Assembly: GCA_964519895.1 (NCBI GenBank)
Contig: CAZFLE010000015.1
Coordinates: 2,073-66,072 of the forward strand
Reading direction: 5' to 3'
Length of the DNA stretch: 64,000 nt
Origin: an uncultured Enterobacterales bacterium
Lineage (GTDB): Bacteria > Myxococcota_A > UBA796 > CAJQPC01
Shown: piece by piece, positions 7,957 through 50,556 of the stretch
Layout of the letters: each line of letters opens with the position of its first letter
Numbering within the stretch: the first letter of the stretch is position 1
The notes under the pieces: model-generated
Databases searched by the model: none
Told to the model about the DNA's origin: nothing
Seen by the model: the letters and a program-made list of their open reading frames with translations, nothing else
Made by a program: the position numbers and the translations under genes

Positions 7957-8826
7957 TCAGTAGAGCTTGGCGAGCTGCGGGCCAGGCCGGGCCTTGCGCT
8001 TCCAGAAGCCGTGCTCACGGGCGGGGAAGCTGCCGGCCTTGACCTCGGCCACGTAGCGGGTCACCGCGTCGACCATCGGCTGCTCCAGCTCGGCGAAGCG
8101 CTTGACGAAGCGGGGCTTGAAGCTGGTGTCGAAGCCCAGGAGATCGTTGCACACCAGGACCTGGCCGTCGCAGTGCGGCCCGGCGCCGATGCCGATGGAC
8201 GGGATGTGCAGCAGCGCCGTCAGCTCGGCTGCCAGCTCGCCGGGCACCATCTCGAACACCACGCTGAAGGCGCCGGCGTCCTGGACCGCCAGGCAGTCCC
8301 GCCGGAGCTGGTCAGCACCCGCGTCGCCGCGGCCCTGGACACGCCAGCCCCCCAGCGCGTGCACGGACTGCGGGGTCAGCCCCACGTGAGCCACCACCGG
8401 GATGCCGGCCTCGACGATGCGCGCGATGGCCGGGGCCGAGCGCTCGCCGCCCTCGAGCTTCACGCTCTGGGCACTGCCCTTCTGGACCAGGTACCCGGCC
8501 GACGTGAGCGCCTGTTCCGGGGAGACCTGGTAGGACATGAACGGCATGTCGACCGTCAGGTGGGCCCTCTGCAGACCCCGGGCGACGCAGCGCCCGTGGT
8601 AGGCCATGTCGTCCAGGCTCACCGACAAGGTGTCCTGCTGGCCCTGGATGACCATGCCCAGCGAGTCGCCCACCAGGACCATGTCTACGCCGGCTTGGTC
8701 GACCAGGCGGGCCATGGAGTAGTCATAGGCCGTGACCATGGCGATCTTCTCGGGTCCATCGGACCCCTTACTCTCGAGGTTGTCGGCCTTCATGCGGAGA
8801 AGGTCCAACGCGGTCTTGCGGGGCAT
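7957..8826 (-). CDS. panB: 3-methyl-2-oxobutanoate hydroxymethyltransferase
   Basis: The C-terminal 289 aa of the 804-aa track ORF carry VTAYDY, LVGDSLGMV, VKLEGG, HVGLTPQS and IGIGAG motifs. The ATG is at 8826. Confidence 0.9.
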   Translation of the reverse strand: MPRKTALDLLRMKADNLESKGSDGPEKIAMVTAYDYSMARLVDQAGVDMVLVGDSLGMVIQGQQDTLSVSLDDMAYHGRCVARGLQRAHLTVDMPFMSYQVSPEQALTSAGYLVQKGSAQSVKLEGGERSAPAIARIVEAGIPVVAHVGLTPQSVHALGGWRVQGRGDAGADQLRRDCLAVQDAGAFSVVFEMVPGELAAELTALLHIPSIGIGAGPHCDGQVLVCNDLLGFDTSFKPRFVKRFAELEQPMVDAVTRYVAEVKAGSFPAREHGFWKRKARPGPQLAKLY

Positions 8827-8834
8827 CTGCCCTC

Positions 8835-9518
8835 CTACACGCCCTCCGTGCTGAACAGTGTCGGCTGGGTCTCCCGCTCGAACAGAGTCGATGCAGGGAC
8901 CCCGGGGGCACACTTGCCCGCCAACCAGTCCTGGATCATTCCAAGGACCGCTGTGCGGGCGTCTGGATCGTTGACGTAGTCGATGTCCGTGGTCTCCAGG
9001 TAGTGAACCGGTGCTTCGTGGTAGTTCTTCCACAGGTTGAAGTACCGGTCGCGCAGGTCGTCCAGGTAGTTGCGCTGGATGACGGCCTCGGCGGAGATGC
9101 CGCGGCACTGGATGCGGGACATGATGACGTCGGTGGGGGCGTCGAGGAACAGGACCAGGTCCGGCCGGACCAGGTTCGTGCCCAACAGCCCGGCGAAGCG
9201 GTCGTAGAGGGCCAGCTCGTCGCCGCCGAGGGTCTTCTCGGCGAACAGGCGGTCCTTCTCGAACAGGTAGTCGCTGACGATCAGGTCGGTGAACAGCTCG
9301 CCCTGGCGCAGGTTCTGCTGCTGCGCGTACCGGGTGGCCAGGTAGAACATCTGGGCCGGAAAGGCAAAGCGTTCGGAGTCCGCGTAGAACTCCTTCAGGA
9401 AGGGGTTGTCCTCGGCGGGCTCCAACACCAGGTGGGCTCGCAGCTCGTCTCGCAGCGCGCGGCACAGGGTGGTCTTGCCGACCCCGATCAGGCCCTCGAC
9501 GACGAGAAACTTCGACAC
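8835..9518 (-). CDS. Deoxynucleoside kinase family protein
   Basis: 227 aa with the P-loop VEGLIGVGKTTL, an ERF..P...FY dNK pattern, and the DRYF lid region. Confidence 0.8.
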   Translation of the reverse strand: MSKFLVVEGLIGVGKTTLCRALRDELRAHLVLEPAEDNPFLKEFYADSERFAFPAQMFYLATRYAQQQNLRQGELFTDLIVSDYLFEKDRLFAEKTLGGDELALYDRFAGLLGTNLVRPDLVLFLDAPTDVIMSRIQCRGISAEAVIQRNYLDDLRDRYFNLWKNYHEAPVHYLETTDIDYVNDPDARTAVLGMIQDWLAGKCAPGVPASTLFERETQPTLFSTEGV

Positions 9519-15880: not shown

Positions 15881-15955
15881 GGGCGATTAACTCAGTGGGA
15901 GAGTGCTACCTTCACACGGTAGAAGTCACTGGTTCAAATCCAGTATCGCCCACCA
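15881..15955 (+). tRNA. tRNA-Val (anticodon CAC), CCA encoded
   Basis: A full cloverleaf was folded by hand. Acceptor stem gggcgat/atcgccc. D stem actc/gagt. Anticodon stem ctacc/ggtag with loop ttCACac. T stem actgg/ccagt with loop ttcaaat. Discriminator a, then CCA. Confidence 0.9.
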
Positions 15956-17426
15956 TTTTCGACACCTCTGGGGCTCCGGCCCCGAGGATGTCGAAGACAA
16001 CTGAAGTTTCGGCGGTTCCAAACGACTCGCCGTCGTGGGTGAGCCCGGTCGGGAACACCAGCCGCTGAAGGTGGATGCGGGCCTTGGGATGCAGGTCCGT
16101 CCACAGCGCGGCCGGCTTCGACAGCAGGCGCTCGGCGAACCCGAGCAGGGCGTCCACGTCGAGCTGGTCGTCCTGGGCCTGGTGAAGCTCGATGCGGACC
16201 GCTGCGATGTCGGCGTCCAGCTCGGCCTGCTTCGCCCGGCAGGCCTCCTCGCTGATGACGCGGTCGAGGTACGCATCCACAACCTGCCCTCGGCGTCGCT
16301 CCAGGTCCTGCAGCCGTTTGTGGAGGGCGGCCTCGGCCGCACCGGCGTCCTGGCGACGAGTCCGCCACACGTCGAGGATGACCTCGCGGAACAGCCGCAC
16401 GTACTCGACCCTCGGTGACGCCCGGCACAGCAGCTCCACGAAGGCCTCCTCCATCCGCTCCTTGGGCAGGGACACGCAGCCACTCCGGCGGCACCTGTAG
16501 TAGCCGAAGCGGCCGTTGCGTCCGCGGGAGAAGCTCCCAGTGACCGGCAGATCGTGGTGTGCGCAGCGCACGAAGCGTCGCAGTGGAAAGTCCGGGTGGT
16601 CCAGGAGGTGCGGCGGGGACTTCGGCCCCTTGCGCGTCAGGACGTGCTGAACGGCATCCCAGAGCGCCTCGTCCACGAGCGGATCGAAGTCGCCCTCGAC
16701 GTCGATGGCCCACCTGGGCTCGACGATGCGGCCCTTGTAGATCGGGTTGCCCAGCATGTTGCGAAAAGTCTGGGCGCTCACAGCGTTGCCTCGCCGGGTC
16801 GTCAGGCCGAGGGCGTTCACGTGCCTGCGGACCGCGGCTTGCGAGCGGTGGCCGGTGGCGTACATCTCGAAAGCCAGCCGAACCAGCGGGGCGCGATCGG
16901 AATCAGCAACCAAGCTGGCTCCCGCCCCCGTCCGGGGCTTGGTATACCCGACGGGCGGCTGGTGGGGCCATCGGCCGCGCGCGACCGCGGCCTTCATGCC
17001 GTTGAGCGCCCGCTCCGAGCGCACGTCGTTGTCGAACTGGGCGACCAGGGCCAACATGCCTTCGAGGAACCGGCCTGGTGCGTCATCCTCCAGGTGCTCG
17101 GTCGCCGACCGTAGTTCGATGCCGAGGGTACGCAGTCCGCCGCGCAGCATGTGGTAGTCGCCGACGTTCCGGGAGAACCGGTCCACCTTGTACACGACCA
17201 CGTAGTCGACCTCGGCCTTCCGGTCGGCGCACACTCGCAGCAGCCGGTGGAGCTGGGTCCGGTCCGCCGTCTTGGCGGACTCGCCGCGCTCCTCGAAGAC
17301 CTCCATGACCTGGAGACCGTTGCGCCGGCAGTAGTCGCGGCAGGCGTCGAGCTGGGTCGCCAGGCTCAGGTTCGAGACCTGCTCCTTGGTAGAGACACGA
17401 CAGTAGACGAGGGCGTTGAGGGGCAC
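15912..17426 (-). CDS. Large serine recombinase (integrase)
   Basis: 504 aa. It has a resolvase catalytic N-terminus ALVYCRVSTKEQ, VYKVDRFSRN, a recombinase domain, the Cys-rich zinc ribbon CAHH..YYRCRRSGC, and a coiled coil. The last 14 codons are antisense to tRNA-Val positions 32-75. Confidence 0.9.
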   Translation of the reverse strand: MPLNALVYCRVSTKEQVSNLSLATQLDACRDYCRRNGLQVMEVFEERGESAKTADRTQLHRLLRVCADRKAEVDYVVVYKVDRFSRNVGDYHMLRGGLRTLGIELRSATEHLEDDAPGRFLEGMLALVAQFDNDVRSERALNGMKAAVARGRWPHQPPVGYTKPRTGAGASLVADSDRAPLVRLAFEMYATGHRSQAAVRRHVNALGLTTRRGNAVSAQTFRNMLGNPIYKGRIVEPRWAIDVEGDFDPLVDEALWDAVQHVLTRKGPKSPPHLLDHPDFPLRRFVRCAHHDLPVTGSFSRGRNGRFGYYRCRRSGCVSLPKERMEEAFVELLCRASPRVEYVRLFREVILDVWRTRRQDAGAAEAALHKRLQDLERRRGQVVDAYLDRVISEEACRAKQAELDADIAAVRIELHQAQDDQLDVDALLGFAERLLSKPAALWTDLHPKARIHLQRLVFPTGLTHDGESFGTAETSVVFDILGAGAPEVSKMVGDTGFEPVTSTV

Positions 17427-17656
17427 GGCGGTCTACGGTCCATTGCCGTCGAAGCCACGGCCGCGTCCACGAGGACACGGGCGACGGCGTACATGGCCGC
17501 ACGCAGCTCGGCGAGCTGTCGGGGGGTCAGCTCGGCGGAGCCACGCAGCTCGCTGAATCGTTCGAGGGAGAGCACGGCGGGGGCCTGCTCGCGTCGGGTG
17601 GACGCGGGTTGACCGACCGCTCGGGCTCATCCCGTGGCGCTCAGGGGGCTGCATGG

Positions 17657-18514
17657 TCACTCCTCAGCGGCACGCGGGGTCGTCCCGTCGTGCTCCGAGG
17701 GCTTGGTGTGGACGGTCCGCTCAACATGGAGGATGGAGCCGTCGCGGCGAACGATGCGGAGGTCCTGGTAGTCGTCGGACGCCACCAGGTCGGCCAACTC
17801 GGCGTGGTCGTCGAGCGAGACGCGCTGCGTCGCGGCGACGTGGCGAACCTCGCCGTTCTTCAGGCGGACCTCGACGCGGTCGAAGTCGCCAGACCGGATC
17901 ATCTTGACGACGTCCTGCTCCGGCTTGGACATCAGGTTGCCCATCATGGCGTGGCCCAGTTCGGCCATGAAAGTGCGCCCCCGGCCGTGGCGTGGCAGCT
18001 CGATCGGAGGCTTGCGACAGCGCAAGAGACGCCGGACCAGTGGGTTGACGTTGAGCAGGATGACCGACGGCGGCGCCGCGTCCGGGTCGTTGGACTCCTC
18101 CAAGTCACCGTGCTGAAGCAGGTCGATGATCTCCATCGCTGAGTCCATGACGAAGCGGCTCTTCAGGTCCGTCATCACGAACACCGGCAGGTCCAGCAGC
18201 GCGATCAGCCGGACGGCGGACATGAAGTGATCGGCGCCCTCGTCCAGCATGACGTCGCGGACGAAGCGCAGCGACCCGACGGGCACGCCGTAGCGCTTGC
18301 GGATCTCTGCCATCACCATCAGCGCGAAGACCTGGCGCGGAGTGTAGCGGCGCCATGACTCGCCGCGCCGCTCCTGGTCCGGGAGCACGCCCTTGCCGTC
18401 CCACTCGTTGAGCTGCCGGTACGACAGGTCTGCGGCCTTGCGTACATCGCCGGCGGTGAAGGGTCGGTCGGCCTCGTCAGGCATCGGACATCCAGAATGA
18501 ACGTGAGCGTTCAT
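17657..18514 (-). CDS. MerR-type HTH protein with uncharacterised C-terminal domain
   Basis: The N-terminus FTAGDVRKAADLSYRQLNEWDGKGVL looks like a MerR/excisionase-type HTH. The remaining ~200 aa are unrecognised. The start is at 18514 or 18484. Confidence 0.55.
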   Translation of the reverse strand: MNAHVHSGCPMPDEADRPFTAGDVRKAADLSYRQLNEWDGKGVLPDQERRGESWRRYTPRQVFALMVMAEIRKRYGVPVGSLRFVRDVMLDEGADHFMSAVRLIALLDLPVFVMTDLKSRFVMDSAMEIIDLLQHGDLEESNDPDAAPPSVILLNVNPLVRRLLRCRKPPIELPRHGRGRTFMAELGHAMMGNLMSKPEQDVVKMIRSGDFDRVEVRLKNGEVRHVAATQRVSLDDHAELADLVASDDYQDLRIVRRDGSILHVERTVHTKPSEHDGTTPRAAEE

Positions 18515-18625
18515 TCCTTCTACCGCGCCAGGTCTCCAGCGAGCAAGGGGAAATGTACGGCTCGGTTCAATCCTGCTCGGCTGGCGCGACGGTCGCGTCT
18601 GGTTGCAGCCCGTTGCGCGGACCGA

Positions 18626-19489
18626 TCAGGGCCCGGCCCGTTGGGGCTCCGGCATCCGCGCGAGCGCAGCCAGCCCGAGAGACGCCAGGGTCACACACGA
18701 CAGGGCAGTCAGCCAGGCGTTCCCCAGGACCCAGGCGGCCAACGTCGCCCCGGTCTCGCGCCAGACGATGTAGCCAGCCATGACCAGAACGAAGACGCCG
18801 AACCCGCGGCGAAGCGCCCCCTCGGGGACCCTGGACGCGAGCTTCGCACCAGCAAGCGCACCGACGACGGCGCCGGCGGTGACTGCGGCGGCAAGCTCGA
18901 AGTCGACCGACACATCAGCCGCGTGACCTGCAAACGCCGCGAACGACTTCAGCGCGATCACGAGCAGCGAGGTGCCGATCGCCCTGTGCATGTCCATTCC
19001 GCCAAGGAGAACCAGTGCCGGGACCACCAGGAAGCCGCCACCGGCACCGACCAGCCCGGTGGCGGCTCCCACGATGAGACCCTCGACGATAACCAGCGTC
19101 ACCGGCAGCGACCCGCCCTCCGACCGCCGCGCCGGCGTGCCGCGCCCGCGGAACATCCCGACAGCGGTCGCCACCATCATGGCGGCGAAGAGCAAGAGCA
19201 GCGTGGACCCGCTGAACCAGCCCGCCGCCCGGCCGCCGAGGTAGGCGCCAGCCATCGCCGTGGCGCCGAACAGCAACCCCGTGCGCCACGCGACGTTGCC
19301 CGAGCGTGCATGGGGCACGAGCGCGAAGGCTGAGGTCGTCCCAACGATCAGGAGGGACGTGGCGATGGCCTCGCGGGGCTCCAAGCCCACGGCGTAGGTC
19401 AGGATGGGGACCGCCAGGATCGACCCGCCACCGCCGAGGAGCCCGAGGGCGAGGCCGATGAGAACGGAGAGTGCAACAGCGAGCGCCAC
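18626..19489 (-). CDS. TauE/SafE (TSUP, DUF81) sulfite exporter family permease, copy 1
   Basis: 287 aa, polytopic, with repeated GGGGS/GAGGGF motifs. The GTG start is preceded by GGGAGG. Confidence 0.85.
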   Translation of the reverse strand: MALAVALSVLIGLALGLLGGGGSILAVPILTYAVGLEPREAIATSLLIVGTTSAFALVPHARSGNVAWRTGLLFGATAMAGAYLGGRAAGWFSGSTLLLLFAAMMVATAVGMFRGRGTPARRSEGGSLPVTLVIVEGLIVGAATGLVGAGGGFLVVPALVLLGGMDMHRAIGTSLLVIALKSFAAFAGHAADVSVDFELAAAVTAGAVVGALAGAKLASRVPEGALRRGFGVFVLVMAGYIVWRETGATLAAWVLGNAWLTALSCVTLASLGLAALARMPEPQRAGP

Positions 19490-19491
19490 GG

Positions 19492-19950
19492 CTACCTCCC
19501 CGCTTCAGCGGCGGCGGTGCGAGCGACGCGAGTCGCGGCGAAGCCGTCCAGGAAGTGAACCAGCAACATCCCACCGAGCATGGCTGCGACAAACGTGATC
19601 GCCTTGGGTCCGCCCGGCAGCGCTGAGACCACCGCAGGGCCGGGACAGTAGCCAGCCAGGCCCCACCCCACTCCGAAGAGGGCGGCGCCACCAACCAGCC
19701 GGCCATCGATGTCCCGCCTCGTCGGCCGGCTGAAGGACGTCGAGCACAGCGGCGCTGTTCGATGGTCGATGACCCGACGCAGAGGGGTGTGCACGAGGAG
19801 TGCCCCGACCATCACGACGCCGAGGCTGGGGTCCCACGGGCCAAGCAGGTCCAGGAAACCGACGACCACGTCCGGACGGGTCATCCCCGACACGACGAGG
19901 CCGGCGCCGAAGACCAGCCCGGAGAGAGCCGCTGTGATGAGACCCTTCAC
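19492..19950 (-). CDS. YeeE/YedE (sulfur transport, DUF395) half-protein B, copy 1
   Basis: Its GTG start overlaps the upstream stop (GTGA). It carries the [11 protein letters not shown] motif. Confidence 0.75.
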   Translation of the reverse strand: MKGLITAALSGLVFGAGLVVSGMTRPDVVVGFLDLLGPWDPSLGVVMVGALLVHTPLRRVIDHRTAPLCSTSFSRPTRRDIDGRLVGGAALFGVGWGLAGYCPGPAVVSALPGGPKAITFVAAMLGGMLLVHFLDGFAATRVARTAAAEAGR

Positions 19951-20378
19951 AGCGCACCTCCGAGCACATGGTTGACCGCGAAGGCACTGGCGGCGCCGGT
20001 GCCCATGAACGTCAGGACGCTGGTGAGCGACCGGGGTGACATCCGAGCCAAGCCACACACGCCGTGCCCGCTCGTGCAGCCGTTTCCGAGCCGGGTGCCA
20101 GCCCCGACGAGCAGCCCCGCGACAATGAGAGCGCCGGTGGACCGGGAGAGCGGATTCACGAATGCGTCCGGGACGACCGGGACGAGCAACAGCCCCGCGA
20201 GCACCAACCCGACAACGAAGGCCGCGCGCCAGTGGCGCTCTTGGGTCCGACGCTGAAGCAGCCCGCCGACGATGCCGCTGATCCCGGCGATGCGACCGTT
20301 GAACAGGAGGTACGAGGATGCCGCCAGCCCGATGAGCATCCCGCCGACGAGGGGAGGGAGGAGTGACTGCAGGGTCAT
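19947..20378 (-). CDS. YeeE/YedE (sulfur transport, DUF395) half-protein A, copy 1
   Basis: Its ATG at 20378 overlaps the pdo stop (ATGA). It carries the [12 protein letters not shown] motif. Confidence 0.75.
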   Translation of the reverse strand: MTLQSLLPPLVGGMLIGLAASSYLLFNGRIAGISGIVGGLLQRRTQERHWRAAFVVGLVLAGLLLVPVVPDAFVNPLSRSTGALIVAGLLVGAGTRLGNGCTSGHGVCGLARMSPRSLTSVLTFMGTGAASAFAVNHVLGGAL

Positions 20379-21433
20379 CGTGCTTCTCCTTCGACGGAGG
20401 CCCGGACGACAGGCAGGCCCCGATCGGTCCAGGCCTGCATCCCGCCTGAGACGGAAGCGATCTGGGAGAAGCCACTCGTGCGAAGCCTCTGAGCCGCCTC
20501 GGCCGACCGCCGGCCCGAGTGGCAGATCAACGCGATCCGGTCGTCGGTCGACCACTCGCTCGCGGCGTCAGCGAGCTTGCCGAGGGGGACGCGCTGGGCG
20601 TCAGGCGCGCACCCGAGCGGCCCACAGCACTCCGCGGGCTCGCGGATGTCGATCAGCCGGACGCGGGCCGCGTTCGCGGCGATCCACACGGGGTCGACCT
20701 CCGGGATGCCGGCACCAGTGAGGACGATGGGAAGGCCCGTCGCAGTCGCCCCACACGCCCGGTTGGCCGGCAGGGCGACGTCGATGCGCTTGGGGTACGG
20801 AAGGCCCAGGCCATTCATCAGCGCGATGAAGTCGCCCTCGGAGCGACCATGTCCGAGCCTGGCGTTGTGCCGCTTCTCGTCGCCGACGGTGCTGACGGTG
20901 CGGCCCTTGTAGTCGTGGCCGGGGTAGACGCGGGTGGCGTCCGGCAGCGTGAAGATCTGCTCGTGGACGCGGCGGTAGAGCGTCCTCGCGTCGCCCTCCT
21001 GGAAGTCGGTCCGGCCGCACCCGCCGATCAGCAAGGCATCGCCGGTGAACACCATCGTCTCGTCGAGCGTGACGAAGCTCACGCAGCCCGCGGTGTGGCC
21101 CGGCGTGGCCCGCACCTGCAGGCCGTAGCCGCCGAAGCGGACCACCTCGCCGTGGCCGACGGCCTGGTCGGAGCAGCTGACCCCGGCGGCCTCGCTAACC
21201 ACGGCGAGGCAGCCCAGCCGGTCCCGTAAGGCCGAGGCGCCGGTCACGTGGTCGGCGTGGACGTGGGTGTCGAGAGTGCACACCAGTCGGACCCCAAGGC
21301 TGTCGACGAGCGCAGCGTCCCGGTCGACCTGTTCCAGCACGGGATCGATGATGACTGCCTCACGGCTCTCGGGGTCGGCGAGGAGGTAGGTGAAGGTGGA
21401 CGTGTCCGGGTCGAACAACTGTCGGAAGATCAT
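20375..21433 (-). CDS. Persulfide dioxygenase (MBL fold, ETHE1-like) fused to a rhodanese domain, copy 1
   Basis: The start was trimmed to MIFRQLF to match copy 2. It has the THVHADHV metal motif and a C-terminal rhodanese domain with the active-site loop CHSGRRS. Confidence 0.85.
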   Translation of the reverse strand: MIFRQLFDPDTSTFTYLLADPESREAVIIDPVLEQVDRDAALVDSLGVRLVCTLDTHVHADHVTGASALRDRLGCLAVVSEAAGVSCSDQAVGHGEVVRFGGYGLQVRATPGHTAGCVSFVTLDETMVFTGDALLIGGCGRTDFQEGDARTLYRRVHEQIFTLPDATRVYPGHDYKGRTVSTVGDEKRHNARLGHGRSEGDFIALMNGLGLPYPKRIDVALPANRACGATATGLPIVLTGAGIPEVDPVWIAANAARVRLIDIREPAECCGPLGCAPDAQRVPLGKLADAASEWSTDDRIALICHSGRRSAEAAQRLRTSGFSQIASVSGGMQAWTDRGLPVVRASVEGEAR

Positions 21434-21468
21434 GGCAGAGCCCTCGGAGTGAGACAGCTTGGACAAGA

Positions 21469-21483
21469 GCAACGGGCGTGCCA
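21469..21483 (-). promoter_or_regulatory. Sigma-54 promoter (-24/-12) of sulfur module 1
   Basis: The minus strand reads TGGCACgcccgTTGC, an exact match to the TGGCAC-N5-TTGC consensus. It lies about 35 nt upstream of the pdo ATG. Confidence 0.75.
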
Positions 21484-21554
21484 ACCCCCCGCGGCACGTA
21501 TTTCCGCAGACTTAGGTGGTTGCCTCCAGGCCTCGTATTTCATAGTGTCTCGAC

Positions 21555-22505
21555 ATGACGAAACAACATCGTCCAAAGACTCGGACGTTCCACGGCATGG
21601 TGACCGCCTCGCGGCAGATGGAGCGGCTGTTCGAGCTGGTAGGACGCGTCGCCGAGTCTGGCTCCTCCGTGCTGATCCGGGGGGAGACCGGCACGGGCAA
21701 AGAGCTGGTGGCGCGCGCCATCCACTCCTTGAGCCCTCGGCGGGACGCGACGTTCCGAGCAGTGAACTGCGCAACGCTCACGCCCGAGCTGCTTGCGTCG
21801 GAGCTGTTCGGGCACCGCCGGGGCGCCTTCACCGGAGCTGTACAGGACCGGCCCGGTCTCTTCGCTCTGGCCAATGGCGGCACGCTGTTCTTGGACGAGA
21901 TCGCCGAGATCCCGCTGGACATCCAGGGGCGCCTCCTCCGGGTCCTTCAGGAGCGCTCCTTCGTGCCTGTCGGCGGGACCGATCCAGTCCAGGTCGACGT
22001 GCGCGTCCTCGCGGCCACGCACCGTGCGCTGAGACGCGAGGTCGAGGCCGGGCGCTTCCGGGCCGACCTGATGTACCGGATCCGCGTCGTGCCGCTCTTC
22101 CTCCCGCGTCTGGTCGAGCGCTCCGGCGACATCGAAGCGCTGGCGTGGCACTTCATCGACGAGTTCAACGTCCGCGGGTTCCGCCAGGTCGAGCGCCTCG
22201 CCGCCGAGACCCTCGACCTGATGCACGCTCACGCCTGGCCGGGCAACGTCCGCGAGCTGCGCAACGTCATCGAGCACGCCTTCGTGATGGGAACCGGACC
22301 CGACCTGTTGCCGGGTGACCTGACGCCCGAGCTTCGCGGAGAGCCCCCGCCTGGAGACCCCGCCGACCGGACGGAAGAGAGCGCCGAGCGGGACCGCATC
22401 CTCACCGCGCTGAACCGCGCCCGAGGCCACAAGGGCAAGGCCGCCGAGTACCTCGGGTGGAGCCGGTCGACCCTGTGGCGAAAGATGCGCGAGCAACGAC
22501 TGTAG
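21555..22505 (+). CDS. Sigma-54-dependent transcriptional activator lacking an N-terminal sensory domain, copy 1
   Basis: 316 aa. The AAA+ core starts about 12 aa from the N-terminus ([27 protein letters not shown]). It has a C-terminal Fis-type HTH ([21 protein letters not shown]). Confidence 0.9.
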
Positions 22506-22520
22506 GGCGGCGCTGGACGC

Positions 22521-22961
22521 TCACCAGACCGACAGCAGGTCGTCGAGGGCGCGCTGCTCCGCCGCGTCCCGTGTCCAGGTCTCCAGGCCCGTCAAGACCG
22601 GCCCGTCACGCTTCGGCAGGCCGGCCCGGTCGAGGATGGCGCAGGCAGCGCGGATGCGGGCGCCGGTCTGGACCGAGCTGTCGGCGACGACGCCACGGAG
22701 GAATCGCATCGACTCCAAGGCAGCCGCGCCCACCTCCTCGCGGACCGCCGCCAGGCGCTCGGCTCGCCGGCGCCTCAGCTCCTCTTGAACCGCCGCGACC
22801 TGGAGCCAACGCCAACAGGTGGCTCGATGGACACCCAGCTCCGCCGCCACCTCGGGCACCGTCTTCCCGGCGAGGAGGTGGTCTACAAACAGGTCGTGGC
22901 GGGGCTCAAGCTGGCCCACTTGCACTCCAGTCTGGCCACTCCCCTGCCTGGTGTAAATCAA
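22521..22961 (-). CDS. Hypothetical HTH DNA-binding protein (phage/element-type)
   Basis: LLAGKTVPEVAAELGVHRATCWRWL is a clear HTH. The start codon is uncertain (TTG at 22961 or an internal GTG). Confidence 0.45.
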   Translation of the reverse strand: MIYTRQGSGQTGVQVGQLEPRHDLFVDHLLAGKTVPEVAAELGVHRATCWRWLQVAAVQEELRRRRAERLAAVREEVGAAALESMRFLRGVVADSSVQTGARIRAACAILDRAGLPKRDGPVLTGLETWTRDAAEQRALDDLLSVW

Positions 22962-23080
22962 GCAGTGCAGTCCTCCCAGGCGGGCACAATGGCCTCATGA
23001 GGCCCTCCCAGAGCCCCGTATCTGCTGCTCAACGATGGAAAGCCGCAAGTTCTCGACCTCCGAGAGCCACCCCCACACCC

Positions 23081-23150
23081 GGTTCCAACTCGGAGTGATT
23101 TGGCCCACCATCGATTGGCCCCGTCAAAGCCTACCTTTGACGGGGTCTTT
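23081..23150 (+). repeat. Degenerate tRNA 3'-tail-like remnant R1 plus terminator-like hairpin
   Basis: The tail ggttccaactcggagtgatttggcccaccatcga is followed by the hairpin ccccgtcaaag..ctttgacgggg and a T-rich run. The unit is paralogous to the one at 23976-24039. Confidence 0.5.
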
Positions 23151-23187
23151 CGTTCTTCCGCTCCACGTGCCCTACCGGACGCCCGAA

Positions 23188-23598
23188 CTACTCCGGTAGC
23201 ACGCGGAGAGCCGGGCAGTGTCTGGGCGCGACCGTCCGCATGTGTCGGTGGTCCAGACTGATGACCACGTCCGTGCCAAGACGCTCAGCGAGGGCAATGA
23301 CTGATGCGTCCGTGCCTCCGAGCGGGAAGGACGCGTACTGCTCCACCAACTCGGCCATCCTCGAGAGATCCTCGGGCCTCGGCCCCTCGACGTCAAAGTC
23401 CGACAGTCCCCGCAAGAACTCCGCTTCCACCCTCGCTCCCATTCGCGAACCGATGAGGTAGGTCGCCTCGGCGACGACCATCGCCGGGATGAGCAATCGC
23501 AGTCCGGGCGTCCGGAGCGCAGCGACGCAGGCTTCGTGATCCGCGTCGTCGGCGTCGACCGCCGCATACAGCGGACCCGTGTCAACGATCGCCAGCAC
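23188..23598 (-). CDS. vapC: PIN-domain toxin VapC (module 1)
   Basis: LAIVDTGPLYAAVDADD at the N-terminus, GGTDASVIALAE, and the C-terminal SLDHRH match the PIN acidic residues. The GTG start was chosen 17 nt inside the antitoxin gene. Confidence 0.75.
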   Translation of the reverse strand: MLAIVDTGPLYAAVDADDADHEACVAALRTPGLRLLIPAMVVAEATYLIGSRMGARVEAEFLRGLSDFDVEGPRPEDLSRMAELVEQYASFPLGGTDASVIALAERLGTDVVISLDHRHMRTVAPRHCPALRVLPE

Positions 23599-23824
23599 CG
23601 GTCCACTCCCGCGCGAGGATCTCTTCGGCTTTCCGGGCGGTGTGGCGCTGCCCGCTGCGCCCGATTCCGGCGAAGGGGAGGGCGCGAGGTTCCTCGTCGT
23701 CGAGACCGAGGGCGGCGGACAGAGCCCGGCGAACGACATCGGAGACCGACGTACCTGCGCGCTCCGCCCGACGCGCGAGGACGACGGCCATCTCTTCCGG
23801 CAGCGAAATGGTGATGCGATGCAT
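23582..23824 (-). CDS. Ribbon-helix-helix (CopG-like) antitoxin
   Basis: 80 aa. MHRITISLPEEMAVVLARRAERAGTSVSDVVRRAL is a canonical RHH. An AT-rich direct repeat (agtatgaagtatg, read on the minus strand at about 23821-23833) spans the start codon and the first few upstream bases. Confidence 0.75.
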   Translation of the reverse strand: MHRITISLPEEMAVVLARRAERAGTSVSDVVRRALSAALGLDDEEPRALPFAGIGRSGQRHTARKAEEILAREWTGAGDR

Positions 23825-23900
23825 ACTTCATACTACATCATCATCTGAGGGCGGGCAAGTCGCGTCAATCGTCCGATCAGGTCGCCGTCCCAACCCTCCC

Positions 23901-23921
23901 GGTCCAGGTTCGCCCACCATC
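23901..23921 (+). repeat. tRNA 3'-tail-like remnant R2
   Basis: ggtccaggttcgcccaccatc shares ccaggttcgcccaccatc with R3 and is followed by the imperfect hairpin ccctgcc..ggcgggg. Confidence 0.5.
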
Positions 23922-23975
23922 AAACCCTGCCGACGAGGCGGGGTTTCTTGCTCTGGCCACTGCCGGACGCCGGCC

Positions 23976-24003
23976 GGTTCAATCCAGGTTCGCCCACCAT
24001 CGA
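23976..24003 (+). repeat. tRNA-Val 3'-tail copy R3 (candidate attR / displaced original tRNA end)
   Basis: ggttcaatccaggttcgcccacca compares with the tRNA's ggttcaaatccagtatcgcccacca. There is one indel and two substitutions by hand alignment. Confidence 0.6.
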
Positions 24004-24007
24004 CCGA

Positions 24008-24039
24008 GCCCGTCAAAATTCATCTTCGACGGGCTTTTT
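24008..24039 (+). terminator. Rho-independent terminator following remnant R3
   Basis: The stem gcccgtc/gacgggc has a 13-nt loop and is followed by ttttt. Confidence 0.65.
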
Positions 24040-24131
24040 CGCGTCCTTGTCTGGCGCGACCATGCTGGACGTTCGAACTCTGGCCCGCCTGGCACTGAGC
24101 ACGGAACTTCACTATCGGTTAAGATTCGTGC

Positions 24132-24680
24132 ATGGGGGCAACCGGACCATCGTGGGACCAACTGTACGAACATGCCGTCGCCCAGGCCGGGTATTTCACC
24201 ACCGCGCAGGCAGCGGAGGCCGGCTACTCGTCGCCACTGCTGCACAAGTACCTCGCCAACGGCAAGGTCATGCGCATCCGTCGCGGCGTGTACCGGCTGG
24301 CACACTTCCCGGCGGGCGACGACGAGGATCTGGTGGTGCTCTGGCTCTGGAGCGACCGCGAAGGCGTGTTCAGCCACGAGACCGCGCTGGTCCGCCACGA
24401 GCTGTCCGATCTGCTGCCGCACGACGCCGAGATGACGGTGCCGCCATCGTGGCGGCGTCGACGGCTGCGGGTCCCCATGGGGCTGCACCTCCACTTCGCG
24501 CCCGTCCCCGCAGGCGAGCGCACCTGGTATGGCGCCGTGCCGATCACGACCGCCGCCCGCACCATTCGGGACTGCCGAGCCGCAGGTGTGTCGCCGGAGT
24601 TCGTTGACCAGGCCATTCGGCAGGGCGTTGGGCGAGGGCTGTTCACGGAGGGCGAGGTTGGCAACGGGGGCAGGTCGTGA
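24132..24680 (+). CDS. AbiEi-family antitoxin / transcriptional regulator (type IV TA)
   Basis: GYFTTAQAAEAGYSSPLLHKYLANGKVMRIRRGVYRL matches the AbiEi N-terminal winged-helix pattern. It overlaps the toxin gene by 4 nt. Confidence 0.8.
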   Translation: MGATGPSWDQLYEHAVAQAGYFTTAQAAEAGYSSPLLHKYLANGKVMRIRRGVYRLAHFPAGDDEDLVVLWLWSDREGVFSHETALVRHELSDLLPHDAEMTVPPSWRRRRLRVPMGLHLHFAPVPAGERTWYGAVPITTAARTIRDCRAAGVSPEFVDQAIRQGVGRGLFTEGEVGNGGRS

Positions 24681-25579
24681 AGCGCTACGCCACGCCGCTC
24701 GCCTTCAAGGAGGCGCTCGAAGCCCGGCTCCGGGCGGCGTCTCGGTCTGGCGGCCAGGAGCAGAACCGGCTGCGGATGCGCCTGCTGATGGACCGTTTCG
24801 CCGCGCGCGTGGTCCATGAGTACGGCGAGCACGTCGTGCTCAAGGGCGGCGTCGTACTCGAGCTCCGCCTGTCAGAGGCCCGTGCGACCAAGGATCTCGA
24901 CCTTCGTCTGGTCGGCGACCCCGATGCCACCCTCACCAGGCTCCAACGCGCCGGCAGAGAGAACCTCGGGGATCACCTGGCGTTCGAGGTCGGGCCCGAC
25001 CCTCGCCACCCCACGATCGAGTCGGAGGGCATGCAATACCAGGGGCTCAGGTTCCGCGTTCAGGCCCGGCTCGCCGCCAAGGTCTACGGTGGCCCCTTCG
25101 GGGTCGACGCCGCCTTTGCGGAGCCTTTGGTGGGCGACCCCGAGCTGCTGCGTGGCTCCGAGTTCCTCGCCTTCGCCGGGGTCGAGCCGCCGACCCTCCT
25201 AGTCTACCCGCTGGAGGCGCACATCGCAGAGAAGCTGCACGCCTACACGCTGCCCCGCTCGCGTCCGAATTCCCGGGTGAAGGACCTGCCCGACCTTGCG
25301 CTGCTCGCCAGGGTCCGGCCCATTGATGCCGTCACGCTGCGGGACGCTCTCGATAGGACCTTCGCGCATCGAGCGGTTCACACGGTCCCCACCGAGGTAC
25401 CCGACCCGCCCGAGGCATGGCGAGTGCCGTACGCACGGTTGGCTCGTCGGGACCGCCTGCCGTGGATCGACCTCGCCGCGGTGGCCGAAACGACCCGAGC
25501 CTTCCTCGACCCCGTACTCTCCGGCGGTGGGGGGCTCTGGAGTCCCAGCGCCTGGCGGTGGGAGGCCGAAGAGCCCTGA
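24677..25579 (+). CDS. AbiEii/AbiGii nucleotidyltransferase toxin (DUF1814)
   Basis: 300 aa with the VLKGGVVLELRL..ATKDLDL nucleotidyltransferase motif and family-typical length. Confidence 0.85.
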   Translation: MKRYATPLAFKEALEARLRAASRSGGQEQNRLRMRLLMDRFAARVVHEYGEHVVLKGGVVLELRLSEARATKDLDLRLVGDPDATLTRLQRAGRENLGDHLAFEVGPDPRHPTIESEGMQYQGLRFRVQARLAAKVYGGPFGVDAAFAEPLVGDPELLRGSEFLAFAGVEPPTLLVYPLEAHIAEKLHAYTLPRSRPNSRVKDLPDLALLARVRPIDAVTLRDALDRTFAHRAVHTVPTEVPDPPEAWRVPYARLARRDRLPWIDLAAVAETTRAFLDPVLSGGGGLWSPSAWRWEAEEP

Positions 25580-27467: not shown

Positions 27468-28334
27468 TCACCTGGGCGCCGGGTGCTCCCGTTCCGGCGC
27501 CCGGGCGAGCGCACCCAGTCCGAGGGCCGCCAGGACCACGCCCCACAGACCGGCGATCCACCGGTTGTCGACCACCCAGGCGGCCGCAGACGCCCCGGTC
27601 TCCCGCCAGACGATGAAGCCGGCCATCGCCAGGACGAAGACCCCGAACCCACGACGGAGCGACGCTCCCGGGACCCTGGACGCGAGCTGGGCACCCGCCA
27701 GCGCGCCCAGCACGGCCCCGGCGGTGACCGCACCGGCCAGCGCCAGGTCGACGGGCACATCGACCGCGTGGCCCGCATAGGCCGCAAAGGACTTCAGGGC
27801 GATCACGAGCAACGAGGTTCCGATGGCCCGGTGCATGTCCATGCCCCCGAGCAGGACCAGCGCCGGCACCACCAGGAAGCCCCCGCCGGCGCCCACCAGC
27901 CCTGTCGCCGCTCCGACCCCCAAGCCCTCGGCGACCACCAAGGCCACTGGCGGGGACCCGGCCCAGGGCCCCGGGGCCGCCGAGCTGCGGCCTCGGAACA
28001 TGCCCAGGGCGGTGGCGACCATCATGGCGGCGAACAGCAGGAGCAGCGTCGATCCGCTGAACCACCCGGCCGCCCGGCCGCCGAGGTAGCCCCCGGCCAT
28101 CGCCGTGGCCCCGAACAAGAGCCCCGTGCGCCAGGCCACGTTGCCCGCCCGCGCATGGGGCCAGAGCGCAAAGGCCGACGTGGTCCCGACGATCAGCAAG
28201 GACGTGGCGATGGCCTCGCGCGGCTCCAGACCCACGGCATAGGTCAGGATCGGCACCGCGAGGATCGACCCACCACCGCCCATCAGGCCAAGGGCGAGGC
28301 CGATGAGCACGGAGAGCGCCACGGCGATCCACAC
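27468..28334 (-). CDS. TauE/SafE (TSUP) sulfite exporter family permease, copy 2
   Basis: Colinear with copy 1. A GTG at 28334 (or 28322) was chosen because the track ORF start at 28379 lies inside the inserted repeat element. Confidence 0.8.
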   Translation of the reverse strand: MWIAVALSVLIGLALGLMGGGGSILAVPILTYAVGLEPREAIATSLLIVGTTSAFALWPHARAGNVAWRTGLLFGATAMAGGYLGGRAAGWFSGSTLLLLFAAMMVATALGMFRGRSSAAPGPWAGSPPVALVVAEGLGVGAATGLVGAGGGFLVVPALVLLGGMDMHRAIGTSLLVIALKSFAAYAGHAVDVPVDLALAGAVTAGAVLGALAGAQLASRVPGASLRRGFGVFVLAMAGFIVWRETGASAAAWVVDNRWIAGLWGVVLAALGLGALARAPEREHPAPR

Positions 28335-28336
28335 GG

Positions 28337-28500
28337 CTATTCCCCTGTCGCAGAAGTTCGCGAGGCACTCGCGAAGCAATCGTCGCGCCTGGTGGATTCC
28401 AGACGCGGCCGGTGTGGCCGAGTCACATCAACGCGGCTGGGAGCCGCCAGGCGCGACGAGGGCGAGCGAGTGTCCGTGAACTTCTGCGACATGGGACTAG
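28337..28500. mobile_element. MITE-like element, copy 2, inserted in the yeeE-B/tauE junction of sulfur module 2
   Basis: 164 bp, gap-free colinear with copy 1. The arms are ctattcccctgtcgcagaagttcgcg and cgtgaacttctgcgacatgggactag (23 of 26 pair). It is flanked by CTA(T)/CTA(G). The paralogous junction in module 1 (19487-19492) has no insert. Confidence 0.7.
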
Positions 28501-28955
28501 TGCCGCCGCTCAGGAGAGGCGACGCGGGCCAGGGGTCTCCCGGCGAGGGCGTCCACGCGGTGCACCAGCACCATGCCGGCCAACATGGCGGCCAGGAAGG
28601 TGAGCGCCTTGGGGCCGCCCGGCAGGGCAGAGACCACCGCAGGGCCCGGACAGTAGCCAGCCAGACCCCAGCCCACGCCAAAGAGGGCGGCGCCCACGAC
28701 CAGGCGGGCGTCGAGGTCCCGCCGGGTCGGCATCCTGAAGGCGTCGGAGCACAGGGGCGACCGCCGGCGTTCGATCAACCAGCGCAGCGGGGCGTGCACG
28801 AGCAGGGCCCCGACCATCACGACCCCCAGGCTCGGGTCCCAGGTGCCGAGGACGTCCAAGAAGCCGACGACCACGTCGGGGCGGGTCATCCCCGACACCA
28901 CGAGGCCGATGCCAAAGACCAGGCCCGAGGCGGCTGCGGTGATCAGTCCCCTCAC
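28497..28955 (-). CDS. YeeE/YedE half-protein B, copy 2
   Basis: GTGA start overlap as in copy 1, with the [11 protein letters not shown] motif. Its TAG stop lies in the terminal CTAG of the inserted element. Confidence 0.75.
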
Positions 28956-29383
28956 AGCCCACCTCCCAGCCACTGGCTGACCGCGGTGGCGCTGGCCGCG
29001 CCGGTGGCCATGAAGGTGAGCACGCTGACCAGCGAGCGCGGGGAGCTCCGAGCCAGCCCACACACGCCGTGCCCGCTGGTGCAGCCGTTCCCGAGCCGAG
29101 TGCCAGCGCCCACCAGCATCCCCGCGACGACGAGAGCGGCGGTGGACCGAGAGAGCGGATTCACGAAGGCCTCGGGAGCGGCAGGGGCGAGCAACAGTCC
29201 CGCCCCACTCAGCCCGATCACGAACGCGCCCTGGAGATGGCGGTCCCCAGTGCGACGCTGGAGCAGCCCGCCGACGATGCCGCTGATCCCAGCGACGCGA
29301 CCGTTGAACAACAGGTAGCCGGACGCCGCCAAGCCGATGAGCATCCCGCCCACGAGCGGCGGGAGGAGCGCTTGAATGGTCAT
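28952..29383 (-). CDS. YeeE/YedE half-protein A, copy 2
   Basis: ATGA overlap with the pdo stop, with the [12 protein letters not shown] motif. Confidence 0.75.
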
Positions 29384-30438
29384 CGTGTGGCTCCGTCGCT
29401 GGACACCCGCACCACTGGGAGGCCAAGGGCGGTCCAGGCGGCCATGCCGCCTTCCACGGACGCGACCTGGGCCAAGCCACGGGCCCGGAGCCCCAAGGCG
29501 GCGTCGCCCGAACGCCGGCCCGAGTGGCAGACCAGGGCGACCCGAGCGTCGCTCGACCACGCGCCCGCGGCCTCGCCGAGCTCGCCAAGGGGGACCCGCA
29601 AGGCGTTGGGAATGCACCCCAGCGGTCCGCAGCACTCGACCGGCTCGCGAATGTCGACCACCTGAAGCCGCGCCGGGTTCGCCGCCACCCACTGGGGGTC
29701 GACCTCGGGGATGCCGCCGCGGCTCATGACGATGGGAAGGCCCGTCGCAGGCACCCCGCACGCCCGGTTCGCGGGCAGCGCGACGTCGATGCGCCTGGGG
29801 TAGGGAAGCCCTAGCCCGTTCATCAAGCGGATGAAGTCAGCCTCGGGGCGTCCCTGCCCGAGCCGGGCATTGTGTTGCTTCTCGACGCCCACGGTGCTGA
29901 CCGTGCGGCCCCTGTAGTCGTGGCCGGGGTACACCCGGGTGGCGTCCGGAAGCGTGAAGATCTGCTCGTGCACGGAGCGGTAGAGGGTGCTCGCGTCGCC
30001 CTCCTGGAAGTCCGTGCGTCCGCAGCCGCCGATCAGCAGGGCGTCCCCGGTGAAGACCATGGCCTGGTCCAGGGTGACGAAGCTCACGCAGCCCGCGGTG
30101 TGACCCGGCGTGGCCCGGACCTGCAGCCCAAATCGACCGAACCGCACGACCTCGCCGTGCCCGACGGTCTGGTCGGAGCAGCTCACCCCTGCGGCCTCGC
30201 TGACCACCGCCTCGCAGCCGAGGCGGTCACGGAAAGCCGTGGCGCCGGTCACGTGATCGGCGTGCACGTGGGTGTCGAGCGTGCACACCAGGCGCAGGCC
30301 CAGCTCCTCGACCAGGGCCGCATCCCGCTCGACCTGCTCCAGCACGGGATCGATGATGACCGCCTGGGCACTGACGGGATCGGCCAGGAGGTAGGTGTAG
30401 GTGGAGGTGTCCGGGTCGAACAGCTGTCGGAAGATCAT
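29380..30438 (-). CDS. Persulfide dioxygenase-rhodanese fusion, copy 2
   Basis: 352 aa starting [18 protein letters not shown], with THVHADHV and a rhodanese CHSGRRS loop. Confidence 0.85.
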
Positions 30439-30472: not shown

Positions 30473-30487
30473 GCAACGGCCGTGCCA
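30473..30487 (-). promoter_or_regulatory. Sigma-54 promoter (-24/-12) of sulfur module 2
   Basis: The minus strand reads TGGCACggccgTTGC, an exact consensus spacing, in the same position relative to pdo as in module 1. Confidence 0.75.
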
Positions 30488-30558
30488 ACACCTTCCGCCT
30501 CGCGTTTCCAGCCACTTGGAGACCTGCCGAACCAAGAGTTGATTCATAATGTCTCAAC

Positions 30559-31509
30559 ATGAAGCAATATGATCGTCCAAGCACGCGCACATTCCACGGC
30601 ATGGTGACCGCGTCACCCCAGATGGCCCATCTCTTCGCGCTGGTGGCGCGCGTCTCCGAGCCTGATTCGTCTGTGTTGATCCGCGGAGAGACCGGCACCG
30701 GCAAGGAGCTCGTTGCCCGGGCCATTCATGCCCTGAGCCCCCGCCGGAACGCGGCCTTTCGGGCGGTCAACTGCGCCACCCTCACCCCCGAGCTGCTCGC
30801 GTCGGAGCTGTTCGGGCACCGTCGCGGCGCCTTCACCGGGGCCATCCGGGACAAGCCTGGTCTGTTCCAGCTCGCCGACGGCGGCACGCTCTTCCTGGAC
30901 GAGATCGCCGAGATCCCCTTGGACATCCAGGGGCGACTGCTGCGGGTCCTGCAGGAGCGCTCCTTCGTGCCGGTGGGCGGGACCGAGCCGGTGCAGGTCG
31001 ACGTGCGCGTGCTGGCGGCGACGCACCGAGCCCTCCGCCGCGAAGTCCAAGCCGGGCGCTTCCGGGCAGACCTGATGTACCGGGTCCGTGTGGTGCCGCT
31101 GTTTCTCCCGCGCCTGGTGGAGCGCACGGGCGACATCGAGGCCCTGGCCTGGCACTTCATCGACGACTTCAACCGGCGGGGCTTCCGGCAGGTCGACCAT
31201 CTGGCGCCAGAGACCCTGGACCTGCTCCACGCCCACCCGTGGCCGGGCAACGTGCGCGAGCTCCGGAACGTCATCGAGCACGCCTTCGTGATGGGCACGG
31301 GCCCCGACCTGGTGCCCGACGACCTGACGCCCGAGCTTCGCGGGGAGCCGCCGCGGGCAGACCCCGGCGCGGCGACCGCGCTCCAGGCCGAGCGGGACCG
31401 GATCCTGTCGGCGCTGAACCGCGCGCGAGGGCACAAGGGCAAGGCCGCGGAGATCCTGGGGTGCAGCCGATCGACGCTGTGGCGGAAGATGCGGGAGCAG
31501 CGGCTCTGA
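30559..31509 (+). CDS. Sigma-54-dependent transcriptional activator lacking a sensory domain, copy 2
   Basis: 316 aa, colinear with copy 1 (about 45 mismatches by hand alignment). It has GAFTGA, Walker A/B and a Fis HTH. Confidence 0.9.
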   Translation: MKQYDRPSTRTFHGMVTASPQMAHLFALVARVSEPDSSVLIRGETGTGKELVARAIHALSPRRNAAFRAVNCATLTPELLASELFGHRRGAFTGAIRDKPGLFQLADGGTLFLDEIAEIPLDIQGRLLRVLQERSFVPVGGTEPVQVDVRVLAATHRALRREVQAGRFRADLMYRVRVVPLFLPRLVERTGDIEALAWHFIDDFNRRGFRQVDHLAPETLDLLHAHPWPGNVRELRNVIEHAFVMGTGPDLVPDDLTPELRGEPPRADPGAATALQAERDRILSALNRARGHKGKAAEILGCSRSTLWRKMREQRL

Positions 31510-50385: not shown

Positions 50386-50540
50386 GGAACCTCCGTGCCG
50401 GGGCAGTCTACCGGAGCGGGCCGCGGATGCGCTCCAGGACGGCCACCGCGTCACTGACGCCCTGTCGCATCAAATCGCGTCAAGGCGGCCCCGTGGCGAC
50501 AGGTTGTCGCGCCCACACCGCGGATCGAGGCCCCTGGGGC

Positions 50541-50556
50541 AGGCACGGCTCTTGCT
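50541..50556 (+). promoter_or_regulatory. Candidate sigma-54 promoter
   Basis: aGGCACGgctcTTGCt has GG-to-GC spacing identical to the consensus. It lies 31 nt upstream of the 50587 ATG. Confidence 0.55.

Follow-up and report, generated by a model that had tools for sequence, protein, structure and literature searches.

Short Sigma-54 Activators Without a Sensor Domain Beside Duplicated Persulfide Dioxygenase-Type Operons: Sequence, Family, and Predicted Mode of Control

Introduction

How can a sigma-54-dependent activator that carries no sensory domain control genes of reactive-sulfur metabolism? The question is raised by a stretch of 64,000 nucleotides from an uncultured Enterobacterales bacterium (GTDB lineage Myxococcota_A; UBA796; CAJQPC01), namely positions 2,073 to 66,072 of contig CAZFLE010000015.1 in assembly GCA_964519895.1; this whole stretch is hereafter referred to as the window. 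Two short bacterial enhancer-binding proteins (EBPs), referred to as EBP1 and EBP2, are encoded in the window, each divergently from an operon headed by a gene of the persulfide dioxygenase (PDO) type. Described regulators of reactive sulfur fall into three classes, CstR, SqrR/BigR, and FisR (PMC7315123), and wherever the sensing chemistry is known in these classes, cysteines of a sensing module are used. FisR comprises a regulatory domain, an AAA+ domain, and a helix-turn-helix (HTH) domain, and is encoded divergently from pdo-sqr-tauE (PMC7315123). An earlier note, made from the letters of the sequence, had proposed that EBP1 and EBP2 control the PDO operons without a sensor. The present analysis indicates that the two proteins are most likely dedicated sigma-54 activators of the divergent PDO-rhodanese/split-YeeE/TauE operons. 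With moderate confidence, they are further considered to be intrinsically active, in the style of PspF and HrpRS, and to be controlled through their own level or in trans. The proposal that the activators control the operons has gained comparative support from the retained linkage, the sigma-54-like promoters, and an upstream motif at enhancer distance, which are described below.

Architecture of the Two Activators

EBP1 (21555–22505, plus strand) and EBP2 (30559–31509, plus strand) each translate to 316 amino acids, in agreement with the length given previously, and are paralogues with 86% amino acid and 81% nucleotide identity. In both proteins, Pfam assigns Sigma54_activat (the AAA+ domain) to residues 16–181, AAA_lid_14 to residues 188–268, and HTH_8 to residues 276–313, leaving approximately 15 residues at the N-terminus; the PF00158 scores are 221.6 bits for EBP1 and 219.8 bits for EBP2, against a curated Pfam cut-off of 20.2. 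The Walker A motif GETGTGKE (residues 43–50) and the sigma-54 contact loop GAFTGA (residues 90–95) are present in both copies and conserved family-wide. With an AAA+ domain bearing these two motifs, a Fis-type HTH, and a -24/-12 promoter accompanied by a predicted upstream site, EBP1 and EBP2 carry the features expected of sigma-54 activators and are, by sequence, bona fide EBPs.

An in-frame stop codon lies 12 nt before each ATG (TAG at 21543–21545 for EBP1 and TAA at 30547–30549 for EBP2), so that the exclusion of a longer N-terminus by stops in both copies was correctly noted. The spacer to the divergent PDO gene measures 121 nt in copy 1 (PDO start at 21433) and 120 nt in copy 2 (PDO start at 30438); together with the stops, these lengths leave no physical room for a sensory domain on either protein. 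One detail requires amendment: the region boundary had been set at 21434, and the PDO start codon is actually at 21433. In an AlphaFold model computed from 36 family sequences (mean predicted local distance difference test score, 86.7), the first strand, assigned by Pfam to the AAA+ region, begins at residue 10 and no extra fold is seen. Hence the check for a cryptic N-terminal domain proposed in the earlier note, by structure model and profile search, reveals none, and the sensor-less claim is borne out by Pfam coverage of residues 16–313, by the model, by the stops and the 121-nt spacer, and by the shortness of the whole family.

Some gene callers place the start at Met15 (P0001, 302 aa); Met15 is not conserved in the family and the preceding '..RP....FHG' pattern is, which makes the ATG at 21555 the more probable start of EBP1. 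The ratio of nonsynonymous to synonymous substitution rates (dN/dS) between the two activator genes is 0.12, indicating that both copies are under purifying selection; this value and the short length across the family rule out a pseudogene or a truncation artefact as the cause of the short EBPs.

A Uniformly Short Family and Its Longer Relatives

The 120 closest database proteins are all 297–358 aa long, contain the same three Pfam domains and nothing else, and, the window's own copies aside, share 64–70% identity with the window proteins; the named members originate from metagenome-assembled genomes of Myxococcota or Deltaproteobacteria. For 21 of the 38 related genes, the DNA leaves an open frame of at most 24 codons before the conserved FHG motif. 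A neighbour-joining tree of the AAA+-HTH region, computed without bootstrap, groups the short sequences into a single clade of 21 that includes no long protein. Among the best 150 representatives, the signature PELRGEPPP, which closes the lid, is confined to this family. Related loci were retrieved by exact-protein look-ups and by a metagenome scan with the back-translated signature. Genes for a PDO-type metallo-beta-lactamase (MBL), a Sulf_transp plus DUF6691 pair, a SulP-STAS permease, TauE, or Usp are neighbours of the activator in 23 of the 35 loci with at least 1.5 kb of flank, and sigma-54-like promoters (TGGCAC-N5-yTGC with 0–2 mismatches) lie upstream of these neighbours in many of the loci. 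A scan of a genome collection with generic EBP motif patterns returned, among the matches listed, only unrelated EBPs of at most 56% identity. The survey of short activators beside pdo genes that had been suggested has thus yielded a large and uniformly short family with frequent sulfur linkage.

The earlier note had also regarded this minimal architecture as not described for sulfur oxidation genes, a statement that stands in part. A search of a literature collection for short EBPs beside PDO or YeeE genes found none, which does not disprove the existence of such a paper; by contrast, domain-less EBPs as such are known (PspF and HrpR/S), and the window proteins belong to a large family and are no oddity. 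The new part is therefore the combination of domain-less EBPs with sigma-54 control of pdo as a large family, each half of which was already known.

When clustered at 50%, the family collapses to few representatives, and the next-best matches are proteins of 430–470 aa with 52–57% identity over the AAA+-HTH region and 130–150 extra N-terminal residues. The extra regions are PAS-like in P0132 and P0163, and no domain is assigned to those of P0159 and P0160. All four of these long relatives adjoin Lactamase_B(PDO)/TauE/Sulf_transp/DUF6691 genes, three of them divergently, and their spacers contain sigma-54 promoters and TGTTTCA/GTTGCA-type repeats related to the motif of the short family. Because the closest long relatives flank the same type of operon with the FisR layout, the short family looks like a FisR-like, PDO-linked lineage that is without the regulatory domain; this likeness is drawn from the description of FisR, from how the nearest long relatives are built, and from the genes that surround them. 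Searches by tblastn with the activator and the PDO against plasmids, plus two annotated regions, returned generic EBPs and no FisR-type neighbour.

A separate observation concerns the longer relatives P0148, P0153, P0163, and P0165 (loci L144–L149), whose PAS-like N-termini contain a C-x5-C-x2-C-x3-C motif. The motif suggests a metal or Fe-S redox sensor, and these proteins may represent an undescribed FisR-like sensor type; P0163, the one member of this group checked for context, adjoins a PDO-type gene (L144/L145).

Promoters and Predicted Binding Sites

In copy 1, an exact sigma-54 promoter, TGGCACGCCCGTTGC, is located at 21469–21483 on the minus strand, the T of its TGGCAC (21483) being 50 nt upstream of the PDO start codon; in copy 2, the TGGCAC-N5-TTGC match TGGCACGGCCGTTGC is located at 30473–30487 on the same strand, its first T again preceding the PDO gene by about 50 nt. 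Both promoters are 71 nt from the activator ATG, which makes exact the previously estimated distance of about 70 bp. The window contains three exact TGGCAC-N5-TTGC matches, as compared with 0.11 expected, and none of 100 shuffles reached three. Furthermore, rpoN, the gene for sigma-54, is encoded in the same window (57445–58887, minus strand), and the host accordingly possesses the sigma factor required by TGGCAC-N5-TTGC promoters. The rpoN gene is located downstream of lptB-like and LptA-like genes (57445–59737), and the third exact match (58938–58952, plus strand) falls inside the 97-nt lptB-rpoN spacer, on the opposite strand and at a distance of 51 nt from the start of rpoN, where it might serve autoregulation or act as an antisense sigma-54 site.

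Gibbs sampling of the 250 nt upstream of each of 20 sigma-54-like promoters of the family recovered a 10-bp palindrome, TGTYGCRACA/G (typically TGTTGCAACG), as a candidate upstream activating sequence (UAS). The palindrome usually occurs in two to three units spaced 10–12 bp apart; measured from the T of TGGCAC, the units fall 50–112 nt upstream and cluster sharply at 68–73 nt. In a leave-group-out test, 19 of the 20 promoters had a motif match in this zone (p < 0.05 against random 76-position blocks from the same loci), the sites behind the matrix having been chosen with a consensus that the sampler had itself produced. Plain k-mer enrichment did not rise above shuffles because GC-rich coding sequence dominates, and Gibbs sampling was needed for this reason. 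When a position weight matrix (PWM) was trained without the window sequence, 30550–30559, 21556–21565, and 21546–21555 ranked 3rd, 8th, and 9th of the 63,991 window positions, and each of these three units precedes its promoter by exactly 72 or 82 nt.

The predicted UAS of copy 1 (21546–21565) thus straddles the EBP1 ATG at 21555 and consists of two adjacent 10-bp units, TGTCTCGACA and TGACGAAACA, which precede the T of TGGCAC by 72 and 82 nt; that of copy 2 (30550–30569) consists of TGTCTCAACA, the unit ranked third, followed by a weak unit, TGAAGCAATA, and the pair straddles the EBP2 ATG at 30559. The suggestion that the binding sites may lie inside the 5′ coding region of the activator was therefore essentially right. 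Relative to the expected transcription start, the predicted sites would lie at approximately -90 to -105, a distance typical for enhancers, and the short intergenic spacer poses no problem. The position of the predicted UAS across the activator's own start suggests negative autoregulation, a mode of control known for pspF.

Several further elements accompany these sites. GAAAT is located at 21500–21504 in copy 1, 21 nt upstream of TGGCAC, and at 30503–30507 in copy 2 (minus strand). In 7 of the 20 family promoters, GAAA[TC] precedes the T of TGGCAC by exactly 20–21 nt, as compared with nine other occurrences in 5,000 positions, and its carriers include both window copies and loci L093, L106, and L113; the element could be a bend, a proximal half-site, or the site of a second factor. 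The best UAS-PWM hit of the window, TGTCGCATCA (50463–50472), is located 78 nt upstream of a near-consensus promoter, AGGCAC-N5-TTGC (50541–50555), with further TCGCG/TGTCGC repeats up to 50513. This plus-strand region (50463–50555) and a GGAGG ribosome-binding site precede an open reading frame (ORF; 50587–50961) encoding 124 aa with a signal-peptide-like N-terminus and no Pfam hit, for which no homologs were found in the related loci; as a candidate only, the ORF may be a third target of the activators. Locus L088 displays a different arrangement, in which two sigma-54-like promoters flank the activator gene, one for PDO and one for SulP, and at least three tandem GGTGTTCTT-type repeats (8641–8900) are located upstream of the SulP promoter.

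Sulfur Operons, Duplication, and Genomic Setting

Operon 1 is encoded on the minus strand. Its first gene (20375–21433) encodes a PDO-type MBL hydrolase-rhodanese fusion of 352 aa and is followed by genes for a Sulf_transp protein, i.e., one YeeE/YedE half (19947–20378, 143 aa), a DUF6691 protein, the second YeeE/YedE-like half (19492–19950, 152 aa), and a member of the TauE/SafE sulfite exporter family (18626–19489, 287 aa), the last conserved gene of the operon. Operon 2, also on the minus strand, begins with a PDO-rhodanese gene (29380–30438) whose product is 80% identical to that of copy 1, and continues through 27468–29383 with Sulf_transp (approximately 28952–29383), DUF6691 (approximately 28497–28955), and TauE (27468–28379). 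The fusion protein comprises Lactamase_B (residues 12–173) and Rhodanese (residues 254–336) domains, and its HxHxDH metal motif reads THVHADH. Its best NCBIfam hits, GloB and Blh, are both below cut-off, and the PDO identity is assigned from resemblance to the family and from gene context. The duplication takes in the whole module, from TauE through the spacer to the activator, with approximately 80% nucleotide identity over 3.86 kb, the two copies being 9 kb apart.

Copy 1 is carried by a probable integrative island of approximately 8 kb (15881–24000), marked by a tRNA-Val gene (15881–15955), an adjoining serine recombinase gene (15912–17426, minus strand), and a degenerate repeat of the tRNA-Val 3′ end (23978–24000); the copy-1 module may therefore have been acquired horizontally. 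A MerR-like gene (17657–18514) is also located inside the probable island, and the cargo besides this gene and the module comprises an HTH_23 gene and a PIN toxin. Between the module copies, 22521–25579 encodes an HTH_23 protein, a PIN/RHH toxin-antitoxin pair, and an AbiEi/AbiEii pair, i.e., mobile-element or defence cargo.

With SulP, YeeE, rhodanese, and PDO among its members, the regulon could serve sulfur scavenging instead of detoxification. YeeE mediates thiosulfate uptake. A scavenging role would be in keeping with a cascade headed by a regulator of sulfur starvation, as is the case for SfnR.

Proposed Mechanism and Alternative Explanations

The activator would bind the UAS units via its nearly invariant Fis-type HTH, and the bound protein would contact the sigma-54 holoenzyme approximately 70–80 nt away and open the promoter by ATP hydrolysis. 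Having no cis-inhibitory domain, it would be intrinsically active, as are PspF and HrpR/S, and through the predicted sites over its own start it would repress its own gene, keeping its level low and steady. Since an intrinsically active protein offers no cis-inhibitory domain for a signal to act upon, the environmental signal would enter outside the protein; the likeliest route is the amount of activator made, as in a cascade, and an unlinked anti-activator is the alternative. The identical recognition helices suggest that EBP1 and EBP2 would probably cross-activate both operons.

In cis, the proteins offer neither a sensor domain nor a cysteine pair. Cys72 (C72) is the sole cysteine of EBP1, and EBP2 contains C72 and C302. 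C72 is the only invariant cysteine of the family and is generic, a cysteine being present at 95 of 101 scored sites in diverse EBP representatives; in 74 of the 120 family members, C72 is the sole cysteine. The observation that copy 1 has a single cysteine and no obvious thiol sensor has thereby been strengthened. A split sensor inside the 64-kb window was also considered and rejected, as no significant match to a stand-alone copy of the N-terminal domains of the longer relatives was detected.

Several results weigh against an intrinsically active activator dedicated to the sulfur operons and controlled by its level or in trans. Approximately one-third of the related loci have no sulfur gene nearby, and one subclade shows none. 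In loci L106, L113, L127, and L146, the activator gene is on the same strand as, and downstream of, genes with sigma-54-like promoters; in such a layout an always-active protein would keep the system permanently switched on, and a degree of post-translational control is therefore suggested. Clustering of the unassigned ORFs located up to 5 kb from each of 41 family genes gave only lineage-restricted clusters and no recurrent partner gene. PspA, for comparison, belongs to the regulon of its activator. No consensus sigma-70 promoter was detected at the scan threshold upstream of either activator gene, and no Shine-Dalgarno sequence was found before either; a -10-like CATAGT/CATAAT, 8–9 nt before the activator ATG, might at a stretch serve a leaderless mRNA. 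The copy-1 UAS units are imperfect, with 9/10 and 8/10 matches. Finally, the assignment of TGTYGCRACA to the activator as its putative binding motif is drawn from co-occurrence, from position, and from the recognition helix SRSTLWRK, which is almost invariant in the family.

Apart from these searches, a Cys-containing ORF of 112 aa was observed between SulP and the short activator in one subclade (L106, at 5363–5701, L113, and L119), and could encode a lineage-specific accessory or partner.

Among the alternatives, the AAA+ core, the lid, or the HTH might itself bind or react with a sulfur species or metabolite, which would gate the ATPase, oligomerisation, or DNA binding; the cysteine next to the Asn71 position and the family-only PELRGEPPP segment are the candidate sites. 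The invariance of Cys72, the confinement of PELRGEPPP to this family among the best 150 representatives, and the same-strand layouts, which require post-translational control, are consistent with direct sensing, and the sulfide sensing of Acinetobacter baumannii FisR is likewise unexplained, the cysteines of its regulatory domain not being conserved (PMC7315123). We nevertheless regard direct sensing as unlikely: Cys72 is as generic as the 95/101 count implies, a lone C72 in 74 of the 120 members makes the intramolecular di- or polysulfide chemistry of known persulfide sensors unavailable, and the first half of PELRGEPPP overlaps the region covered by the Pfam lid model. Somewhat less probable still is an anti-activator of the PspA or HrpV kind, encoded in the operon or elsewhere, that would bind the AAA+ domain and be released when sulfane sulfur rises. 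Both well-studied domain-less EBPs are controlled in this manner (PMC7057263), the Usp and SulP-STAS genes recur in related loci, and the rhodanese cysteine, which cycles between thiol and persulfide, would be a natural signal carrier; the rhodanese domain of the PDO fusion, the YeeE halves, Usp, and the STAS domain of SulP are accordingly the candidates. No candidate is common to all loci, however, as most PDOs of the relatives (279–301 aa) are without rhodanese, Usp and SulP are absent from the window operons, and no PspA-family gene is nearby. Moreover, the residue that corresponds, in an alignment made by eye, to W56 of PspF, the PspA contact, is Arg or variable in the family.

The operons could also receive no signal at all and constitute an always-on cassette whose level is set by autorepression and sigma-54 availability, an arrangement that would suit a mobile island in any host with rpoN. 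The location of copy 1 on the probable tRNA-Val island, the overlap of the predicted binding site with the activator's own start codon, and the absence of a sensor in the searches of partner genes, cysteines, and N-terminal domains in the window are all in line with such a cassette. It is very unlikely in our view, since an ATP-dependent sigma-54 switch is uneconomical for constitutive expression, every system studied so far, e.g., FisR, CstR, and SqrR/BigR, has inducible PDO and sulfite-export genes (PMC7315123), and the family is mostly chromosomal and widespread. On a broader view, the family might detect reactive sulfur or sulfur status in a novel manner, with no sensor domain and no cysteine pair, either directly by the core or through operon proteins acting as persulfide-dependent anti-activators; we consider this doubtful. 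Intrinsically active activators governed by their own level or in trans remain the preferred explanation for EBP1 and EBP2.

Significance and Perspective

A large natural family thus appears to control the same kind of genes as the described reactive-sulfur regulators, without a sensing module and usually with a single generic cysteine. Were sensor-less sulfur sensing true, an input route not described so far would have made up for the loss of a FisR-type domain. The short family constitutes a natural deletion experiment on FisR-like regulators and a clean system, beyond PspF and HrpR/S, for studying the control of sigma-54 activators without a cis domain. As one copy rides on a small probable integrative island, the genomic setting suggests that the activator and its operon form a self-contained cassette that is a transferable unit of sulfur detoxification. 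The motif, promoters, and signature predicted here make reporter, footprint, and pull-down work directly designable. A specialist would be only moderately surprised by the finding, which is solid and directly testable.

Comparison With Known Systems

The domain-less EBPs PspF and HrpR/S, both controlled in trans (PMC7057263), are the nearest precedents for an activator without a cis domain. PspF is naturally domain-less, consists of AAA+ and HTH regions in approximately 325 aa, and is subject to control in trans (PMC7057263), as would be the window proteins. Among solved structures matched to the window EBP, PspF nevertheless ranks well below ZraR, NifA, and FleQ. In 1997, Jovanovic et al. reportedly described PspF as intrinsically active, divergent from its sigma-54 target operon, and autorepressing via a UAS that overlaps its own promoter. 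The window differs in having no PspA/B/C nearby and in targets that are sulfur enzymes and transporters, not membrane-stress genes. An orthologue or equivalog of PspF is rejected by the scores for TIGR02974 (233 bits against a cut-off of 443.55) and NF008622 (196 against 529), and a divergent target of the pspABC type by the gene content of the window operon, which is MBL-rhodanese, Sulf_transp, DUF6691, and TauE instead.

HrpR and HrpS of Pseudomonas syringae are likewise short EBPs without a sensing domain (PMC8657755), present as two paralogues in one genome as in the window, and their output is set by expression level and by the anti-activator HrpV. Unlike the window proteins, they depend on each other as subunits of one hetero-hexamer, which serves a single promoter. 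The hrpR and hrpS genes are adjacent. A co-dependent pair of this type is rejected for the window, where the EBP copies are 9 kb apart, each with its own operon, promoter, and predicted UAS, and one is on the probable island.

SfnR of Pseudomonas putida, which is CysB-regulated, resembles the window proteins in being a sigma-54 activator of sulfur metabolism (PMC13352529); it belongs to a cascade under a master regulator, the input route favoured here for EBP1 and EBP2. It differs in its targets, the sfnFG monooxygenases, which are dimethyl-sulfone genes. SfnR is not known to carry an N-terminal domain. ZraR (1ojl) is the best sequence match in the PDB (E = 4e-72, from AAA+ through HTH); by contrast with the window proteins, it carries a receiver domain, acts as the response regulator of a two-component system, and has no connection to sulfur metabolism.

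FisR provides the comparison in gene context. It senses in Cupriavidus through three cysteines of the regulatory domain that are not generally conserved (PMC12754779). FisR possesses an N-terminal regulatory domain, whereas the window EBPs are without this domain and have a generic cysteine, and the window operons contain no SQR gene. Like FisR, the window EBPs are sigma-54 EBPs that divergently adjoin a pdo operon including TauE (PMC7315123), and the four long relatives share the three-domain layout of FisR beside the same genes.

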